This document shows, in pieces, positions 9,958-60,849 of a DNA stretch of 64,000 nucleotides. The notes under the pieces were generated by a model. It saw nothing but the letters and a program-made list of their open reading frames with translations. It made no database searches and was not told the DNA's origin. Position 1 is the first letter of the stretch. Every line of letters begins with the position of its first letter. The stretch is from Candidatus Aenigmatarchaeota archaeon (GTDB lineage: Archaea; Aenigmatarchaeota; Aenigmatarchaeia; JACPZZ01): contig JAZDLW010000019.1 of assembly GCA_043801595.1 (NCBI GenBank), positions 32,949 to 96,948 of the forward strand, given 5' to 3'. The translations under genes were made by a program, and so were the position numbers.

Positions 9958-10764
9958 TTGATAGAAATGGAAACACATATCGTAGTTTCGGAGACGCCAA
10001 AATTAAACAACCCCATACTCATTGAAGGCTTGCCCGGCGTGGGAAATGTCGGGCGCGTTGCTGCGGGTTATTTCATAGACCAGGCTAAGGCGGTAAAATT
10101 TGCGGAATTGTATTCGAGACATTTTCTGCCTTTCGTACTTGTCCACGACAATGCGGAAGTTTCGCTGCTTAAGAATGAATTCTACTATGTCAAGGCAAAG
10201 AAAAAGGGTGACCGCGACATAATCGTTTTGATCGGCGACGCACAATCATTGGACCAGGTCGGGCATTACGAAATTGCCACAAAGATCCTCGATTTCGTGG
10301 CGGGATTCGGTTGCAAAGAGTTGTACACACTCGGCGGGTTCGGAACAGGCCAGATTGAAACGCAATCGCCAAAAGTTTTCGGCGCAATGTCGTCGCAGAA
10401 ACTGAGAAAAAAACTTGAAAGTTTTGGAATAGATTTTGACGTTTCACCAAAGATCGGCACAATTGTCGGAGCTTCGGGCCTTCTGCTCGGGCTTGGAAAG
10501 CTAAGGGGAATGGAAGGCGTCTGCCTGATGGGCGAGACTGCGGGCTTTCCGATTGTAACAGATCCGAAATCGGCGGAGGCTGTGTTAAGAGTGCTTGTAA
10601 AAATACTGGGTATCAAGCTTGACATGAAAGGGCTTGACCAGAGGGTAAAGGAAATGGAGAGCTTCATAAACAAGGTTGAATCGCTGCAGAGAAAGGCGGT
10701 TGAAGAGATGCAAAGGGGCTCGCAAAAGGATGCGAAGGACGACCAGCTCAGGTACATAGGCTAA
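9958..10764 (+). CDS. PAC2-family proteasome assembly chaperone (COG1938-like)
   Basis: The N-terminal LNNPILIEGLPGVGNVGRVAAGYFI pattern matches archaeal PAC2/Pba proteins. The position after Nop10 is the conserved one. Confidence 0.75.
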   Translation: MIEMETHIVVSETPKLNNPILIEGLPGVGNVGRVAAGYFIDQAKAVKFAELYSRHFLPFVLVHDNAEVSLLKNEFYYVKAKKKGDRDIIVLIGDAQSLDQVGHYEIATKILDFVAGFGCKELYTLGGFGTGQIETQSPKVFGAMSSQKLRKKLESFGIDFDVSPKIGTIVGASGLLLGLGKLRGMEGVCLMGETAGFPIVTDPKSAEAVLRVLVKILGIKLDMKGLDQRVKEMESFINKVESLQRKAVEEMQRGSQKDAKDDQLRYIG

Positions 10765-10776
10765 ACTTTTGGGACA

Positions 10777-10837
10777 ACGGAAAGCAAAGCTTTCCGTGCA
10801 TAGGAAATTCGATAATTTCCTATGAAAGTTTAATCAA
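10777..10837 (+). repeat. Hairpin-repeat module (class 1 hairpins x2 plus TTTAATCAAA)
   Basis: 10777-10797 is ACGGAAAGC|AAA|GCTTTCCGT. 10799-10824 is CATAGGAAATT|CGAT|AATTTCCTATG, which has the same stem as 5606-5631. AAAGTTTAATCAAA follows, ending at 10837. Confidence 0.8.
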
Positions 10838-10903
10838 AAACGTCAATATTAAGCTTAAGAACATTGTTGTGCAGATTAATTGATTGCCTGAAGAGGATTT
10901 CTT

Positions 10904-11077
10904 ATGGAATACACCAGATTCGAGAGGGTAAGGATAATCGGTGCAAGAGCGCTGCAAATATCGCTCGGTGCGCCTGTCCTTATCAAAGACATTGATGAAA
11001 TTGACCCTGTCAAGATCGCCATCAAGGAAATGGAACAGAACCTGATACCGATAACGGTCATAAGGCCGAAAGCTTAA
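10904..11077 (+). CDS. rpoK: DNA-directed RNA polymerase subunit K (Rpo6; 57 aa; missed by the ORF track)
   Basis: Hand translation gives [57 protein letters not shown]. The core [17 protein letters not shown] and the IP.T..R tail are diagnostic. The antisense track ORF 10876-11061 is spurious. Confidence 0.9.
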
Positions 11078-11082
11078 TCAAA

Positions 11083-11129
11083 TAAGCTTTTAAGAAAAGC
11101 TTAAGCAAAAACGGAAAAGTTTGATCAAA
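11083..11129 (+). repeat. Hairpin-repeat module (class 2)
   Basis: 11083-11103 is TAAGCTTTT|AAG|AAAAGCTTA. It is followed by AAGCAAAAACGGAAAAGTTTGATCAAA, with TTTGATCAAA at 11120-11129. The rpoK stop lies in GCTTAATCAAATAAGC just upstream. Confidence 0.8.
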
Positions 11130-11132
11130 AAA

Positions 11133-11140
11133 TATTTATA
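11133..11140 (+). promoter_or_regulatory. Putative TATA box for enolase
   Basis: TATTTATA is preceded by an A-rich BRE-like run. It ends 23 nt before the ATG at 11164, the spacing expected for a leaderless or short-leader archaeal transcript. Confidence 0.45.
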
Positions 11141-11163
11141 CGACCTGAAAACTAAACAGGTTT

Positions 11164-12336
11164 ATGATAAACGATTTGCGTTTTCTAAAGGTGCCCAATT
11201 CAAAGGCTGGCGAGTCTGTGGCGATACGCGCAAAGACGGACAAATATTACATGGCTTCGGTGCCGTCGGGGACGTCGAAAAGCGATTCCGAGGCTGTTGA
11301 TCTTCCGCTTGACATTGTTGAAAAACGATTCTACGACATAAAGGACAAGATCATCGGAATAGATGAAAACAATTTTGAAGCTGTTGACGATTTCTTAAAA
11401 CAGGCGGACGGAACGAACAATTTCCGCAAGCTGGGCGGCAATTTATCGCTGGCAATATCAATGGCAGTATTCCGCGCCGCTGCGAAGGGTGATATCTGGA
11501 AGCTGGTAAATCAGTTCGCATCAACATTCCCGTTTCCGATGGGAAACGTAATCGGCGGGGGCAGCCACGGCGGCAATACGACAATACAGGAATTCCTGAT
11601 AATTCCGGCAAAGGCGAGAACAATGGAAGAGGCGGTAGCGACGAACAGGGAAATAAGAAAAACAGTCGGCGACCAGCTTGAGGCGAGAAACTGGTTAATT
11701 GCGACAAATACGGAGAACGCCTTTACGACAAAGCTCGACGACATGAAGACTCTTGAAATGCTTACCGCAATTGCGAAAAATTACGGTGCGTTGGTTGGTA
11801 TCGACGTTGCGGCGTCGCAGTTCCATTTCAACGCGCGGTATTCCTACGACGCGCTCGGCAAAAGCTTAAACCCAGTGCAGCAGCTTGAATTTATCCAAGA
11901 ATTGATAAAGAACTACAAACTTTTCTATGTCGAAGATCCTTTGTACGAAAAGGACTTCGACCACTTCGCGGAACTTACGAAAAGCGTGAAAGGCTGTATA
12001 ATAGCGGGCGATGATTTGTACTCCACCAACAAAGCGCTGATTGCGAAAGGCATAGAAAAAAATTCAACCAACGGCGTGATAATCAAGCCAAACCAGTGCG
12101 GTACTGTATCGTCGGCGTTAGGCGCAGCGATGCTGGCAAAGAAAGCTGGATTTTGTTTAATCGCGTCGCACCGCTCAGTCGAAACAACGGATAACTGGAT
12201 ATCGGATTTTGCGGTCGGGTTAGGCGCGTCGCTGATAAAGACGGGGATAATCGGGAAAGAGCGCGAATCCAAACTTAACAGGCTCGCGGAAATATGGAAC
12301 AAAATTGAAAAACCGAGAATGGCAAAGCTGTTTTAA
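11164..12336 (+). CDS. eno: Enolase (short, divergent)
   Basis: Motifs appear in enolase order: VPSGTSKSDSEAV (SGAS.G..EA), DVAASQF, VEDP, AGDDL, IKPNQCGT, ASHRSVETTD, IKTG. At 390 aa it is shorter than typical enolases. Confidence 0.85.
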   Translation: MINDLRFLKVPNSKAGESVAIRAKTDKYYMASVPSGTSKSDSEAVDLPLDIVEKRFYDIKDKIIGIDENNFEAVDDFLKQADGTNNFRKLGGNLSLAISMAVFRAAAKGDIWKLVNQFASTFPFPMGNVIGGGSHGGNTTIQEFLIIPAKARTMEEAVATNREIRKTVGDQLEARNWLIATNTENAFTTKLDDMKTLEMLTAIAKNYGALVGIDVAASQFHFNARYSYDALGKSLNPVQQLEFIQELIKNYKLFYVEDPLYEKDFDHFAELTKSVKGCIIAGDDLYSTNKALIAKGIEKNSTNGVIIKPNQCGTVSSALGAAMLAKKAGFCLIASHRSVETTDNWISDFAVGLGASLIKTGIIGKERESKLNRLAEIWNKIEKPRMAKLF

Positions 12337-13151: not shown

Positions 13152-13336
13152 ATATTGTTTATTTTTCTAAACTCCGCAGCTTTCGCCGCCGCTCGTTTGC
13201 GGAATGAGGTTCTGCGCCTTCAATGGCTGATAAACATTTCTACGGAAACCATTTGTTTCCGTGCAGAGGAAATGACAGCTTTTCCTCTGTCGCGCATCGA
13301 AGAACCTATTTAAATACCACCCTATTATCTGTATTG

Positions 13337-16442: not shown

Positions 16443-16456
16443 TGACGTGATTACGT

Positions 16457-17505: not shown

Positions 17506-17749
17506 TAATTTCGTGAAAAACATAAAAAAGCTCATAAAAGGCGAAAAGCCCGAATTGGGAGCGGTTGCAGAAGAGGCGTTAATCGCGACATTGATAACCG
17601 GCGCTGTGCTTGTTGTTATCGGTGTCGTACTTTCATCGTTTATGCCAATCGGTATTGCGCCTTTAATGGCGATGTCTGGAGCTTTATTAAGCTTCCTATC
17701 ATTAATCTTTATGATCACTTTTTGGTTCAGCCAAGAAGGGTTCAAATAA
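17498..17749 (+). CDS. Small membrane protein, hypothetical (2 predicted TM helices)
   Basis: Two hydrophobic stretches are present (ALIATLITGAVLVVIGVVLSSF and LMAMSGALLSFLSLIFMITFWF). It overlaps the bud32 end by 8 nt. Its stop lies inside the hairpin at 17747-17778. Confidence 0.4.
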   Translation: MRDNFVKNIKKLIKGEKPELGAVAEEALIATLITGAVLVVIGVVLSSFMPIGIAPLMAMSGALLSFLSLIFMITFWFSQEGFK

Positions 17750-17778
17750 GCCTTTTCTTTTAAAAAAGAAAAGCCTTA
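17747..17778 (+). repeat. Hairpin-repeat module (class 2)
   Basis: TAAGCCTTTTCTTTT|AAA|AAAGAAAAGCCTTA, with a 10-bp perfect core CTTTTCTTTT/AAAAGAAAAG. The TAA stop of the upstream ORF forms the first 3 nt. Confidence 0.7.
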
Positions 17779-17857
17779 ATGGAAAAGAAAAACAACCACA
17801 AGGGTCGGCGAACATATATAATTGTTGAGCCACTAAGATTTGATTTACGTGTCTAAA

Positions 17858-18805
17858 ATGGAAGAGAAAAATAAGGAAACGGTCGAAAAGGAAAAACCGG
17901 CAGAAGCCGAAAAGGCGGTAGAAAACGTTGTCGAAACCGCCCCGGTCGAAGCGCCGATCGCAGAGGCGATTACGCCGGCCGCTCCTACAGTCGAGATAAC
18001 GCCGGAAGACGTTAAAGCGTTCATGCCGTCACTTGAAAACTGGAAACCAAAAACAAAGCTCGGAAAAGAGGTCATGGAAGGCAAGCAGGATAACATTTAT
18101 AAAATTCTTGAAAACGGCGTCAAGATCAAGGAATTTCAGATTGTCGACAAGCTTGTACCAGATCTGGGAAATGAAATAATCTATATCGGCGGTTCTCCGG
18201 GAAAAGGCGGTGGCAGTCAGAGAACCATCACGAAAAAAACCGCCAGAATGCATAAATCAGGGCGCAGATTCAGACTTTCGTCGCTCGTTGTTGTCGGTAA
18301 CGGCAACGGAATAGTCGGCATCGGACAAGGCACGGGAAAGGAACACAGGAATGCCATTGAGAAGGCAGTTGAACATGCGAAACTTAATCTTGTTACCATT
18401 CGCAGGGGTTGCGGTTCATGGCAGTGTGCGTGCGGACAGGCCCATTCGTTTGCAACAAAGGCAGTCGGACGTTCAGGATCAGTAACAGTTGAATTCCGGC
18501 CTGCACCAAGAGGAACAGGGCTTGTAACAAGCGATGATTTGAAGAAAGTCCTGAAGTCGGTTGGGATAAAAGATGCATGGTGCCGGACAAGCGGAAACAC
18601 CGCGTCAAGGACGAATCTAATAAAAGCAGGGTTCAATGCGCTGAAAAGCATGAACAATATGAAAACCGTTTCAAATGACCTTTTTTTAAAAGGTCAATCA
18701 AAAGAGAATGAAAAAGTTCAATCAAATAAACTTTCTTCGGAAGAAAGTTTAATCAAAGAAGCTTTGGAAAAAGGTAAATCAAATAAGCCTTTGGAAAAGG
18801 CTTAA
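17858..18805 (+). CDS. rps5: Ribosomal protein S5 (uS5) with N- and C-terminal extensions
   Basis: The core runs from KPKTKLGKEV through VVVGNGNGIVGIGQGTGKE, VTVEFRPAPRGTGLV and ASRTNLIKAGFNAL. About 65 aa of E/K/A/P-rich N-terminal extension and about 45 aa of C-terminal tail are extra. The tail is encoded by the repeat array at 18677-18805. Confidence 0.88.
   Translation: MEEKNKETVEKEKPAEAEKAVENVVETAPVEAPIAEAITPAAPTVEITPEDVKAFMPSLENWKPKTKLGKEVMEGKQDNIYKILENGVKIKEFQIVDKLVPDLGNEIIYIGGSPGKGGGSQRTITKKTARMHKSGRRFRLSSLVVVGNGNGIVGIGQGTGKEHRNAIEKAVEHAKLNLVTIRRGCGSWQCACGQAHSFATKAVGRSGSVTVEFRPAPRGTGLVTSDDLKKVLKSVGIKDAWCRTSGNTASRTNLIKAGFNALKSMNNMKTVSNDLFLKGQSKENEKVQSNKLSSEESLIKEALEKGKSNKPLEKA
18677..18805 (+). 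repeat. Tandem hairpin-repeat array lying inside the 3' end of the S5 reading frame
   Basis: GACCTTTT|TTT|AAAAGGTC is at 18677-18695. TAAACTTTCTT|CGG|AAGAAAGTTTA is at 18727-18751. TAAGCCTTT|GGA|AAAGGCTTA is at 18784-18804. The units are joined by four AATCAAA linkers and an AAAAGAGAATGAAAAAG block identical to 5754-5770. Confidence 0.8.
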
Positions 18806-18821
18806 GCGAAAAGTGATAAAA

Positions 18822-19582: not shown

Positions 19583-19605
19583 TTAATGGAAAAAGCTTAA
19601 TCAAA

Positions 19606-19632
19606 CAAACTTTTAAGAAAAGTTTGATCAAA
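19606..19632 (+). repeat. Hairpin-repeat module (class 2)
   Basis: CAAACTTTT|AAG|AAAAGTTTG is at 19606-19626 and runs into TTTGATCAAA at 19623-19632. It is preceded by AAAAGCTTAATCAAAC. Confidence 0.75.
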
Positions 19633-19667
19633 AAAGCGAAGGCTGGTAACAATGACGAGGTATTACG

Positions 19668-43023: not shown

Positions 43024-43644
43024 ATGAAGATTAAAGTAAATGAGCAAACTAAAGATAAAATTTCGTTCACTTTGGAAGAGGCTGACGTGGCTTTTGCGAA
43101 CGCGATGAGAAGGGTAATGATGGTCGAGGTTCCGGCAATGGCAATTGAGTTCGTCGACTTCCACGAAAACAGTTCCGCGATGTACGACGAGGTTATTGCG
43201 CACAGGCTCGGACTTATACCCCTTACGTTTGATCCAAAGCTTTTCAACCTTCCGGACGAATGCATTTGCGAAGGCAAAGGATGCTCGCAATGCCAGGTCT
43301 ATTTTGTTATTGACAAAAAAGGACCTTGTACTGTCTACTCCGGCGATATGAAATCCACTGAAGAGAGCGTAAAACCGGTTGATCCGGGATTTCCGATAGT
43401 CGAACTGCTTGAAGACCATAACCTTAAACTCGATGCAATCGCCCAGCTTGGAAAGGGCGAAGCGCACATAAAATGGCAGGCAGCGATTGCAGCATACAAG
43501 TACGCGAAGAGCAATGATACGAAGTTCAATTTCACTGTTGAGACTGTTTCCGGGCTTGAGCCGTCGTACATAGTACAGAAGGCGGCCGCAATAATCGAAG
43601 GAAAAGCTGAAGAGTTTAAGAAACAGCTAAAAGAAGCGAAATAA
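43024..43644 (+). CDS. rpoD: DNA-directed RNA polymerase subunit D (Rpo3)
   Basis: SFTLEEADVAFANAMRRVMMVEVPAMAIEFVDFHENSSAMYDEVIAHRLGLIPL is the Rpb3/RpoD dimerisation-domain signature. A four-Cys patch, CICEGKGCSQC, is present. Confidence 0.88.
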   Translation: MKIKVNEQTKDKISFTLEEADVAFANAMRRVMMVEVPAMAIEFVDFHENSSAMYDEVIAHRLGLIPLTFDPKLFNLPDECICEGKGCSQCQVYFVIDKKGPCTVYSGDMKSTEESVKPVDPGFPIVELLEDHNLKLDAIAQLGKGEAHIKWQAAIAAYKYAKSNDTKFNFTVETVSGLEPSYIVQKAAAIIEGKAEEFKKQLKEAK

Positions 43645-43660
43645 GCTTTTGAAAAGTTAT
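43641..43660 (+). repeat. Degenerate hairpin-repeat module containing the rpoD stop codon
   Basis: ATAAGCTTTT|G|AAAAGTTAT is an imperfect hairpin of the TAAGCTTTT class. The rpoD TAA is at 43642-43644. Confidence 0.5.
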
Positions 43661-43688
43661 ATAGGGTCGGCTGAGATTAATAATATAT

Positions 43689-53072: not shown

Positions 53073-53254
53073 CCGGCGCTTTTAAAAAACGATACGATAT
53101 GGCCGAAATGCGGTTTTTTGCCCGCAGCTTATAAAGCGTGCGCCGCATCTATTTATATCCATTATATTGATATAACTTAGACATACGGAAGGATTCTCTT
53201 TTTCAGGGAGTTTTTTTGCGTGTCTGATATAGGAAAAAAGGGTGAATAAGGAAA

Positions 53255-53407
53255 ATGGCATTCGGTGGACGCAATTTCGGCGGTCCCAGAGAAACACACA
53301 AGATAACTTGTGCTGACTGTGGGAACGAATCTGAAGTCCCTTTCAAGCCGGACGGCAAAAGGCCCGTCTATTGTAGGGATTGCTTCAACAAGAGACGCGG
53401 AGCTTAA
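53255..53407 (+). CDS. CxxC-x17-CxxC zinc-ribbon protein (50 aa; missed by the ORF track)
   Basis: Hand translation gives MAFGGRNFGGPRETHKITCADCGNESEVPFKPDGKRPVYCRDCFNKRRGA. The C.DCG....VPF.P...RPVYC.DC pattern is that of a widespread small archaeal/bacterial zinc-ribbon family. The antisense track ORF 53082-53297 is spurious. Confidence 0.7.
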   Translation: MAFGGRNFGGPRETHKITCADCGNESEVPFKPDGKRPVYCRDCFNKRRGA

Positions 53408-53408
53408 G

Positions 53409-53456
53409 TTAAACTTTCAGAAAGTTTAATCAAAGTTACACGGTTCTTTGATCAAA
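53409..53456 (+). repeat. Hairpin-repeat module (class 2)
   Basis: TTAAACTTT|CAG|AAAGTTTAA is at 53409-53429, followed by TCAAAG. TTTGATCAAA is at 53447-53456. The module begins 2 nt after the zinc-ribbon stop codon. Confidence 0.75.
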
Positions 53457-53545
53457 CCTTAAATAAGTTTGAAAGGCAACGATTTGAGTTTTTGGCTTCA
53501 TTGCCAATTTTGTATTTTTATATCCTAGACATCTCTATATTTTTC

Positions 53546-60556: not shown

Positions 60557-60682
60557 TGGGGAAACCGTGATTTGAACACGGGTCACCGACTAATTCTAAA
60601 TCTTTCTTTCCCTTAAGGCTTTCTTGTTGAAAGAAAGGCTTACCCGAAGCCGGTATCTTAGACCAGGCTGGACCATTTCCCC
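60557..60682 (-). tRNA. tRNA-Pro (anticodon CGG) with a 51-nt intron at the canonical 37/38 position
   Basis: On the minus strand the acceptor stem is GGGGAAA/TTTCCCC with A73. The D-arm is GTCC-AGCCTGGTCTAA-GAT. The anticodon stem is CCGGC/GTCGG and the loop is TT-CGG-G|intron|A. The T-arm is CCGTG-TTCAAAT-CACGG. The intron spans 60592-60642. CCA is not encoded. Confidence 0.8.
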
Positions 60683-60683
60683 C

Positions 60684-60713
60684 AAACTTTCTTACAAAGA
60701 AAGTTTGATCAAA
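60684..60713 (+). repeat. Hairpin-repeat module (class 2)
   Basis: AAACTTTCTT|ACA|AAGAAAGTTT is at 60684-60706 and runs into TTTGATCAAA at 60704-60713. Confidence 0.75.
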
Positions 60714-60849
60714 GAAGGAAAGTTTGTTGTGCAATGATTTACCTTTCTCCTCTTTCTTTATTTCTGTCAACTATAAGTATTAAACCACGCTATACTTTTG
60801 TTCGCTGCGAATGATCGCGTATTTATTAGGATTATAACGAGGTTAAATT

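Follow-up and report, generated by a model that had tools for sequence, protein, structure and literature searches.

Short hairpin modules are found at gene boundaries in a 64,000-nt stretch of DNA (hereafter, the window) from a metagenome-assembled genome (MAG) of a Candidatus Aenigmatarchaeota archaeon (assembly GCA_043801595.1). These modules are probably two small non-autonomous repeat elements, an outer unit (element 1) and an inner unit (element 2), which multiplied within one genus of the Aenigmatarchaeota (DPANN archaea), spread by copying and were filtered by selection, building mosaics similar to the repetitive extragenic palindromes (REP) and bacterial interspersed mosaic elements (BIME) of bacteria; a fold of three tracts would be the feature that was kept.

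Whole units and composites have been copied to new sites, and the arrays grow and shrink among close relatives. Survival of copies is limited to places where the very compact genome tolerates extra sequence: stop codons and the sites just past them, the gaps between cistrons, 5' leaders, the 3' sides of tRNA genes, the 5' parts of tRNA introns and dispensable C-terminal tails of proteins, where the copies are in frame.

Genomes and sequence scans

The window corresponds to positions 32949-96948 of contig C21 of an 814-kb MAG in 32 contigs (G000), which is 86% complete and has a G+C content of about 45%. The nearest named homologues of its enolase are 76% identical and belong to MAGs of 'Candidatus Aenigmarchaeota archaeon'. 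The comparison set included six more species-level genomes of the same genus (G001-G006), one genome of the sister genus (G007) and a closer relative (R, 86% enolase identity), represented by the 21-kb syntenic stretch L023 from GCA_053536215.1. Intergenic DNA, as left by rough gene calls, makes up 14% of G000. Repeat units were scanned by regular expressions and patterns; MAFFT alignment mis-registers the stems of length variants. Statistics on the position and orientation of outer units are based on 49 stringently defined units.

Abundance of the modules

The modules are real and much more frequent than chance would give. In the window the 14-mer AAAGYTTRATCAAA is matched 10 times, against none in 100 dinucleotide-preserving shuffles, and the 814-kb genome has 30 copies; of those in the window nine are on the plus strand and one is on the minus strand, matching the local gene strand. 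Genome-wide, TTAATCAA occurs 38 times in intergenic and 11 times in coding DNA, and TTAATCAA, TTTAATCA and TGATCAAA are enriched 8- to 19-fold in intergenic DNA. Matches to NTN[GA]ATCAAA are intergenic in 78 of 118 cases, and perfect hairpins with a stem of at least 7 bp in 278 of 625. These perfect hairpins are polar, with GGAAA in the 5' arm of 97 against 2 for the reverse, and CTTT in the 5' arm of 45 against 4.

Modules were detected at each of the eleven loci named in the original prediction, that at 43641-43664 being only a degenerate copy. For the locus 10825-10860 the module part is confirmed and the segment 10848-10860 is not, since it belongs to a conserved leader or promoter of rpoK that is also found in relatives. 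The half-unit GGAAAAGTTTGATCAAA is identical at 5709-5725 and 11113-11129, as had been reported; AAAAGAGAATGAAAAAG is likewise identical at two sites, which lie at 5753-5769 and 18700-18716, one position away from those first given. A whole-genome pattern scan, proposed earlier as a check, found both the intergenic enrichment and the orientation bias.

Architecture of element 1

Element 1 is about 30 nt long and consists of a pyrimidine arm, a loop of 2-5 nt, the complementary purine arm, the 8-mer GNTYRANC and a purine tail. The 5' arm follows the pattern [T/C][A/G]A-[A/G/C]-C(C)-T3-5(CTT); its foot is usually TAA, TGA or TAG, otherwise CAA, and the 3' arm covaries with the stop triplet (TAA..TTA, TGA..TCA, TAG..CTA). 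Stems are perfect in 35 of 38 cases, the mismatches being two T:G and one T:C. The 8-mer begins with the final base of the arm, continues through the six that follow and ends on the tail's first base, as in GCTTAAGC, GTTTGATC and GTTTAATC, and 4-5 of its bases pair with the 5' arm.

Past the 8-mer, the tail is the purine arm in mirror order. Examples are AAGAAA/GTTTAATC/AAAGAA, AGAA/GTTTAATC/AAGA, AAAAG/GCTTAAGC/GAAAA and, in the window at 17747-17795, AAAAGAAAAG/CCTTAATG/GAAAAGAAAA. Tail types go with particular stems: AGC[A/G]AAA with AAGC stems, ATCAAA with AAAC, GAAC, AACC and GACC stems, and AATCAAG with CTTCT stems. The linker and the motif AAGC[A/G]AAAAG, previously listed as two modules, are sub-family variants of this one tail position; the latter is not an independent module but the tail of AAGC-type stems, just as ATCAAA is that of AAAC-type stems.

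The first G is equidistant in the reversed arm and in the tail in 21 of 23 anchored copies, over four classes. Across 51 copies, G positions agree 35 times out of 70 in mirror order and 15 out of 90 in direct order, whereas shuffled tails give 12.8 +/- 2.8 mirror agreements and none of 2000 shuffles reaches 35, although all these figures are inflated by shared descent inside sub-families. At least six distinct tract patterns each follow the mirror rule, and the agreement fades past about five positions. The three tracts have a triplex-type arrangement similar to that of the TMECO repeats of Escherichia coli; that a triplex forms is only a hypothesis, given the A/T-rich tracts and the 8-mer second loop.

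Element 2 and composites

The GGAAA/TTTCC hairpins at 10777-10824, which the original prediction had not singled out, are commoner than the modules that it described and constitute a separate, nested element. Element 2 is about 50 nt long and has two abutting hairpins, sometimes three or four, of the form CAnnGGAAAnn-N3-4-nnTTTCCnnTG. It sits within the loop of element 1 in either orientation, giving composites of 80-130 nt; outer stems with identical arms enclose either a loop of 3 nt or a filling of 53-56, 79, 104-106 or 151 nt. Element 2 has no preferred orientation: relative to the outer tail, seven copies have the same and three the opposite orientation; relative to neighbouring genes, eight are sense and five antisense, with two more antisense in tRNA introns. 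The composite 10760-10842 is predicted to fold as a three-way junction, with z-scores of -6.5 (sense) and -5.5 (antisense).

Features of the window

51..102, minus strand: outer unit TAAGCTTTT-cag-AAAAGCTTA with tail AGCAAAAGAGAATGG and half-unit AAAAGTTTGATCAAA; its first TAA (100-102, minus strand) is the stop codon of the 353-aa open reading frame (ORF) 100-1161 (minus strand), formerly called gap.
5603..5703, plus strand: array of four inner-type hairpins (CATAGGAAATT.., GCGGGAAATC.., CACGAAAACC.., CACGGAAAC..) in the 5' leader of a beta-lactamase-fold gene (ATG 5778); a promoter-like box upstream of the array is also conserved in R.
5709..5771, plus strand: half-unit GGAAAAGTTTGATCAAA followed by outer unit TAAGCCTTTT-cat-AAAAGGCTTA with tail AGCGAAAAGAGAATGAAAAAGG.
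10762..10840, plus strand: composite of the outer stem TAAACTTT / AAAGTTTA around a two-hairpin inner element, with tail ATCAAAAA; the TAA of its outer stem (10762-10764, plus strand) is the PAC2 stop codon.
10777..10824, without strand: inner two-hairpin element, ACGGAAAGC-aaa-GCTTTCCGT then CATAGGAAATT-cgat-AATTTCCTATG.
11069..11082, plus strand: native 3' end of rpoK, AAAGCTTAATCAAA, encoding Lys-Ala-stop (TAA 11075-11077); it resembles a 3' arm plus tail and is the left edge of an insertion restricted to G000.
11083..11132, plus strand: outer unit TAAGCTTTT-aag-AAAAGCTTA-AGCAAAA, then half-unit ACGGAAAAGTTTGATCAAAAAA.
11133..11140, plus strand: TATA box of the enolase gene, TATTTATA, 23 nt before the ATG at 11164; ancestral and outside the repeat.
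13242..13289, without strand: inner two-hairpin element upstream of the S2 gene.
17747..17795, plus strand: outer unit with the best three-tract match, Y-arm CTTTTCTTTT, R-arm AAAAGAAAAG, 8-mer CCTTAATG and tail GAAAAGAAAA, mirrored at 10 of 10 positions; its TAA (17747-17749) is the stop codon of an 83-aa ORF (the 17498 ORF).
18676..18811, plus strand: tandem array of three full outer units and two interspersed arm-plus-tail partials, from the conserved core of S5 to L30.
19588..19637, plus strand: half-unit GGAAAAAGCTTAATCAAA followed by outer unit CAAACTTTT-aag-AAAAGTTTG-ATCAAAAAAG, in the L15-SecY gap.
43641..43664, plus strand: degenerate copy ATAAGCTTTTGAAAAGTTATATAG, whose 3' part merges with a TATA-like box, 29 nt from the next ATG.
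53410..53458, plus strand: outer unit TAAACTTT-cag-AAAGTTTA-ATCAAAG, then a lone palindrome TTTGATCAAA.
60557..60682, minus strand: tRNA-Pro(CGG) gene with a 51-nt intron; the outer unit at the front of the intron is AAGCCTTTCTT-tcaac-AAGAAAGCCTT, with 8-mer CCTTAAGG and tail GAAAGAAAG, mirrored at 7 of 7 positions.
60683..60714, plus strand: outer unit CAAACTTTCTT-aca-AAGAAAGTTTG-ATCAAAG, abutting the 5' end of the tRNA-Pro gene on the opposite strand.

Copying and turnover

Copying is most directly seen in a 129-nt composite, TAAGCTTTT...(four inner hairpins)...AAAAGCTTAAGCAAAAA, which is present with sharp ends at three unrelated loci, 3' of the genes for an Lhr-type helicase, PurA (adenylosuccinate synthetase) and Nop56/58. 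Identity is 98.5% between two of the copies and 88% for the third; similarity begins at the stop codon or a few bases before it and ends with the tail. The helicase and adenylosuccinate synthetase genes share a Trp-Lys-stop end encoded by an identical 9-nt sequence, TGGAAATAA, which at C17:16648-16656 and C27:572-580 forms the left edge of the two 98.5%-identical composites; here the element may have replaced the native C-termini. A cassette stretch of 57 nt is also shared, with 94.7% identity, by the introns of tRNA-Cys and of a tRNA read by ARAGORN as having the anticodon CTA.

Presence and absence of modules differ among relatives at homologous junctions. Three junctions are filled only in R: L7Ae-S28e (14 nt in G000, 43 nt in R), S27e-eIF2a and eIF2a-Nop10. 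The rpoK-enolase junction is filled only in G000 and empty in R, G001, G003 and G005, and at junctions filled in both G000 and R the composition differs. In R, G001, G003 and G005 the rpoK stop codon is followed almost directly by (A)CTTTTATAC, whereas in G000 about 50 nt separate the stop codon from the TATA box common to the relatives. This box, TTTATAC, is at an equal distance from the enolase ATG in the four module-free relatives, and the modules were inserted between the rpoK stop codon and a pre-existing enolase promoter.

The marker of element 1 was counted 30 times in G000, 13 in G001, 11 in G006, 1-4 times in each of the other four genomes of the genus and 0-4 times elsewhere in the class. 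The marker of element 2 was counted 21 times in G000, 13 in G004, 9 in G003 and once in G001, with none outside the genus; reversed-pattern controls gave 0. The two elements have expanded independently across the genus. The description of the family as genome-specific was too narrow, as the families are present in all seven genomes of the genus.

A mechanism for this spread would be copying in trans, or template switching on folded single strands, with the three-tract design retained as a feature of recognition or fold. The sense bias of element 1 could reflect action at the transcript level, where the units would act as REP-like stem-loops that mark or protect cistron ends, or a reverse orientation that would be harmful to transcription.

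Several results weigh against multiplication by copying as the explanation, or would also fit another. No target-site duplication, a check set by the original prediction, is visible at four filled-versus-empty junctions. No Y1/HUH transposase (RAYT, PF01797) was matched in the assembled 86% of G000 or in G001, the genomes richest in element 1, and no reverse transcriptase (RVT_1) in the assembled 86% of G000. The end hairpins of the copies similar to the insertion sequence (IS) IS200 in G004 and G006 are unrelated to the elements; one of these copies is interrupted by a two-hairpin element. A selected cis-acting function, rather than selfish spread, would also explain the strong sense bias, the way in which units abut stop codons exactly, and the fact that module sequences are conserved between species whose proteins are about 76% identical. 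Finally, with 35 of 38 stems perfect, counts of G-U versus A-C pairs cannot separate a constraint on RNA from one on DNA.

Two sources of mobility were considered and rejected. Retro-mobility was discarded for the lack of an RVT_1 domain in the assembled part of G000. An IS200/IS605 parent was discarded too, given that no Y1 transposase was matched in that part and that in G004 and G006 the IS200-like copies end in GC-rich hairpins unrelated to the elements.

Location with respect to genes

Between co-directional genes, 26 outer units are sense and 3 truly antisense; in the 21 kb of R all nine module-bearing junctions are sense. This agrees with the earlier claim that orientation tracks the flanking genes, as does the distribution of AAAGYTTRATCAAA in the window. 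Of the 49 units, 12 provide the upstream gene with its stop codon through the TAA of their arm, and 5 more begin within 5 nt of that stop. The stop codon had been described as part of the module, and it is so for the 353-aa ORF, PAC2 and the 17498 ORF, among others. Outer units are also found directly 3' of tRNA ends and in the spacers of the S5-L30-L15-SecY operon. About 190 nt of hairpins occupy the leader of the gene at 5778, and the promoter-like box conserved in R lies about 45 nt upstream of them.

The claim that the modules concentrate near translation and transcription genes did not hold, for ten upstream genes outside the window are of mixed functions. They include genes for dCMP deaminase, a HAD hydrolase, a pilin-like protein and three hydrophobic proteins without Pfam domains, the remaining ones including TBP, SUI1, L37ae and prefoldin.

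With default settings ARAGORN found no tRNA in the window, although the tRNA-Pro(CGG) gene is present there; when introns were allowed, it found 37 tRNAs in the whole genome, with predicted introns in 22 of them (25-190 nt long in the 18 genes inspected). Outer units front the canonical-position introns of at least eight tRNA genes, including tRNA-Pro(CGG), and always in the tRNA sense.

In S5, the C-terminal tail is the array 18676..18811 translated in frame, with the stop codon at 18803-18805. In S5 of G000, R, G001 and G006 the conserved ...FNALKSMNNMK is followed by a tail of 24-47 residues that consists of translated modules; across the four genomes, three different frames of the motif are used. 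These tails are K/E/S/L-rich and species-specific (18640-18805 in the window, 20690-20778 in L023, and in L015 and L017). The S5 stop codon of G000, G001 and G006 falls directly at the start of L30 or at the Shine-Dalgarno sequence, a position suggesting that insertions persist there only if they keep the frame and contain no stop.

The palindromic cores invite a further explanation, that TTTGATCAAA, GCTTAAGC and AAGCTT are recognised on double-stranded DNA by a protein dimer, for instance a regulator, a nucleoid protein, a methylase or a restriction enzyme. The cores are indeed perfect palindromes of 8-10 bp, strongly intergenic, and contain GATC, CTTAAG and AAGCTT. However, the commonest core, TTTAATCAAA, is not palindromic, the cores are always accompanied by the hairpin and the mirror tail, entire 129-nt composites are copied, units lie in introns and coding tails, and a symmetric site needs no orientation bias with respect to transcription, all of which makes this explanation extremely unlikely.

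Promoter and terminator signals

The original prediction offered two readings, of which that of a REP/MITE-like element (MITE, miniature inverted-repeat transposable element) is supported by the copies at unrelated loci and by presence and absence in relatives, whereas that of a terminator-plus-promoter cassette is not, as a general reading. According to the latter, the T-run of the 5' arm would stop the upstream gene and AAAAG with TTTRATCA (or CTTAAGC) would provide a transcription factor B recognition element (BRE) and TATA box for the downstream one. The archaeal BRE and TATA consensus is AAAnnTTTAWATA, and AAAG-TTTAATCA looks like such a pair. The distance from the end of TTTGATCAAA to the gene is 17 nt for tRNA-Ser(GCT) and 21 nt for tRNA-Pro(CGG), similar to, if slightly shorter than, the 21-27 nt at which TATA-like boxes precede other tRNAs in G000, and the same palindrome lies 37 nt upstream of the SecY ATG. 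The 5' arms place T3-T5 directly past stop codons and tRNA 3' ends. A TATA-like box, TATTTATA, does follow the module directly at 11133-11140, at 23 nt from the enolase ATG, as had been noted.

Against this, the modules are younger than the enolase TATA box and stand upstream of it. The S5-L30 junction has five units followed only by the Shine-Dalgarno-like GTGAT, with no TATA-like box before L30 and no space left for a promoter. Neither signal makes sense for units within a 5' leader, the S5 reading frame or tRNA introns; the distance from a unit to the next start codon ranges from 1 to more than 500 nt, whereas an archaeal BRE/TATA pair stands at a fixed place some 25-30 nt ahead of the transcription start, and neither a promoter nor a terminator needs the linkage of stem and tail or the mirror tail. 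With an oligo-T criterion of at least 5 T, the arms of element 1 carry T3-T5 only, and units lie inside the S5-L30-L15-SecY operon and the 5' leader; no hairpin with a T-run was detected in 10600-11300. The cassette is consequently very unlikely, and the modules appear from their sequence and position to be neither the promoter of the downstream gene nor efficient terminators. Individual copies might nevertheless serve as weak TATA boxes, and the T-runs of the arms might contribute to 3'-end formation.

Possible constraint on the fold

A different explanation would be a selected cis-acting fold, possibly an intramolecular triplex, on the transcript or on single-stranded non-template DNA, punctuating transcription units, with changes in copy number as a secondary matter. 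Such a fold could protect the 3' end of the upstream cistron, cause pausing of polymerase or ribosomes at stops, or guide processing beside tRNA exons. The covariation of the three tracts (first G in 21 of 23, mirror 35/70 against direct 15/90), that of the 3' arm with the stop triplet, the strong sense bias and the position of units at stop codons, tRNA ends and the 5' edges of introns are in its favour, together with a tract order equal to that of class II intrastrand triplex repeats (PMC4666352). On the other hand, most gene ends have no units, and gain and loss are free among relatives even in a ribosomal-protein operon. The second loop of 8 nt is partly paired with the 5' arm, the mirror match decays past about five positions, and sub-family descent inflates its statistics. 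In addition, purine-motif triplexes are weak for A-rich tracts and disfavoured with an RNA third strand. A cis-acting role as the primary explanation is thus possible, although unlikely.

A further reading is a self-propagating triplex module, recognised via a three-stranded fold on single-stranded DNA or RNA and entering transcribed non-coding sites in one direction; by reaching anticodon loops and existing introns it would give rise to some of the long tRNA introns of DPANN archaea, and the copies at stop codons would also punctuate cistron ends. This reading is regarded as quite unlikely.

Comparison with known repeats

Two non-autonomous elements spread by copying have a close counterpart in the REP/BIME of enterobacteria and pseudomonads, which are mobilised by RAYT/TnpA_REP. 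In both systems short extragenic palindromes of several types are joined into mosaics via characteristic linkers, lie in transcribed spacers and 3' regions, and form lineage-specific families whose copy number and array make-up vary among close relatives. The elements described here differ in their archaeal host, in the lack of RAYT or Y1 transposase in G000, and in having no GTAG/GTGG at the foot of the hairpin but a conserved flank 3' of it (ATCAAA or AGCRAAA). They also differ in the mirror purine tail, the nesting of one element in the loop of another, the strong sense bias of element 1 and the copies within tRNA introns and in-frame coding tails.

Archaeal MITEs, such as the SM elements of Sulfolobus, are small, non-autonomous and multicopy, occupy non-coding DNA and can nest. 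The elements of G000 share all these traits; unlike in MITEs, no terminal inverted repeats of a resident IS, target-site duplications or parent element were found for them.

Intrastrand triplex repeats comprise TMECO/BoxC of E. coli and the PIT/ITxF repeats, and the folding of TMECO has been shown in vitro (Holder et al. 2015, PMC4666352). As in the class II (purine-motif) repeats, element 1 has a Y stem, loop, R stem, loop and mirror R tract on one strand, and like TMECO and PIT it is intergenic, lineage-restricted and variable in copy number, with unstable loci (PMC4666352). TMECO is G/C-rich, with tracts of 9 nt and a second loop of 3 nt, whereas the tracts are A/T-rich and of 4-10 nt here, and the 8-mer second loop pairs partly with the 5' arm. 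The strand preference of TMECO is slight in E. coli MG1655 (13 plus, 10 minus), in contrast to the strong sense bias of element 1.

Near-alike bulge-helix-bulge introns in unrelated tRNA genes have been described for the Thermoproteales (Fujishima et al. 2010, as summarised in PMC4090602), where, according to that summary, this sharing implies recent spread at the DNA level by a mechanism that is unknown. The very similar intron sequences in unrelated tRNA genes of one lineage are common to both cases; the cassette of G000 differs in being present also in intergenic spacers and gene ends, and in forming the 5' part of introns at the canonical position instead of the entire intron.

Bacteria are known to have extragenic palindromic mosaics and intrastrand-triplex repeats; for archaea, a full-text literature search found neither described. 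Rfam at gathering thresholds gave no match to the repeat family or to anything else in the window; the family had not been recognised as a described one, and both searches agree with this. The elements occupy a large share of the scarce non-coding DNA of a 0.8-Mb DPANN genome, reshape gene ends by supplying stop codons and C-terminal tails, and are the variable part of about half of the tRNA introns. They provide a concrete family for studying the spread of non-autonomous repeats without a visible transposase, and the growth and origin of archaeal tRNA introns. For annotation, they are a source of error, as the units mimic BRE/TATA boxes and terminator hairpins.

Other observations

In G006, an inner-type two-hairpin element, ATTGAGAAAAC..GTTTTCTCAAT TAGAAAACC..GGTTTTCTAAT, is found at 1462-1512 of L026, just upstream of, or within, the 5' part of an IS200-like transposase gene. 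The rpoK-enolase spacer of G007 (L008 1380-1450) has different abutting hairpins with the same CA...TG feet, CACAAGACA..TGTCTTGTG CATGGAAAC.., and diverged relatives of element 2 may thus exist outside the genus.

The ATG of AGAGAATG was considered as a start codon and rejected, the ORFs that it opens being mostly of 2-30 codons. Operon-internal cistrons have GTGAT or GGTGAT at 5-8 nt before the start codon (e.g. 18806-18812 and 16446-16452), and where a long spacer precedes a gene, a TATA-like box is found at about 23-30 nt from the ATG, a distance that suggests leaderless transcripts.

The sequence TATTAAGCTTAAGAACATTGTTGTGCAGATTAATTGATTGCC, at 10846-10903 upstream of rpoK, is kept in R and G005, unlike the adjoining modules, and may be a conserved rpoK promoter or leader element. 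The 184-nt stretch 53227-53410, which includes the end of a small Cys-rich ORF, has a 94%-identical second copy at C21:99202-99385; the duplicates are about 13 kb apart, and each adjoins an outer unit.

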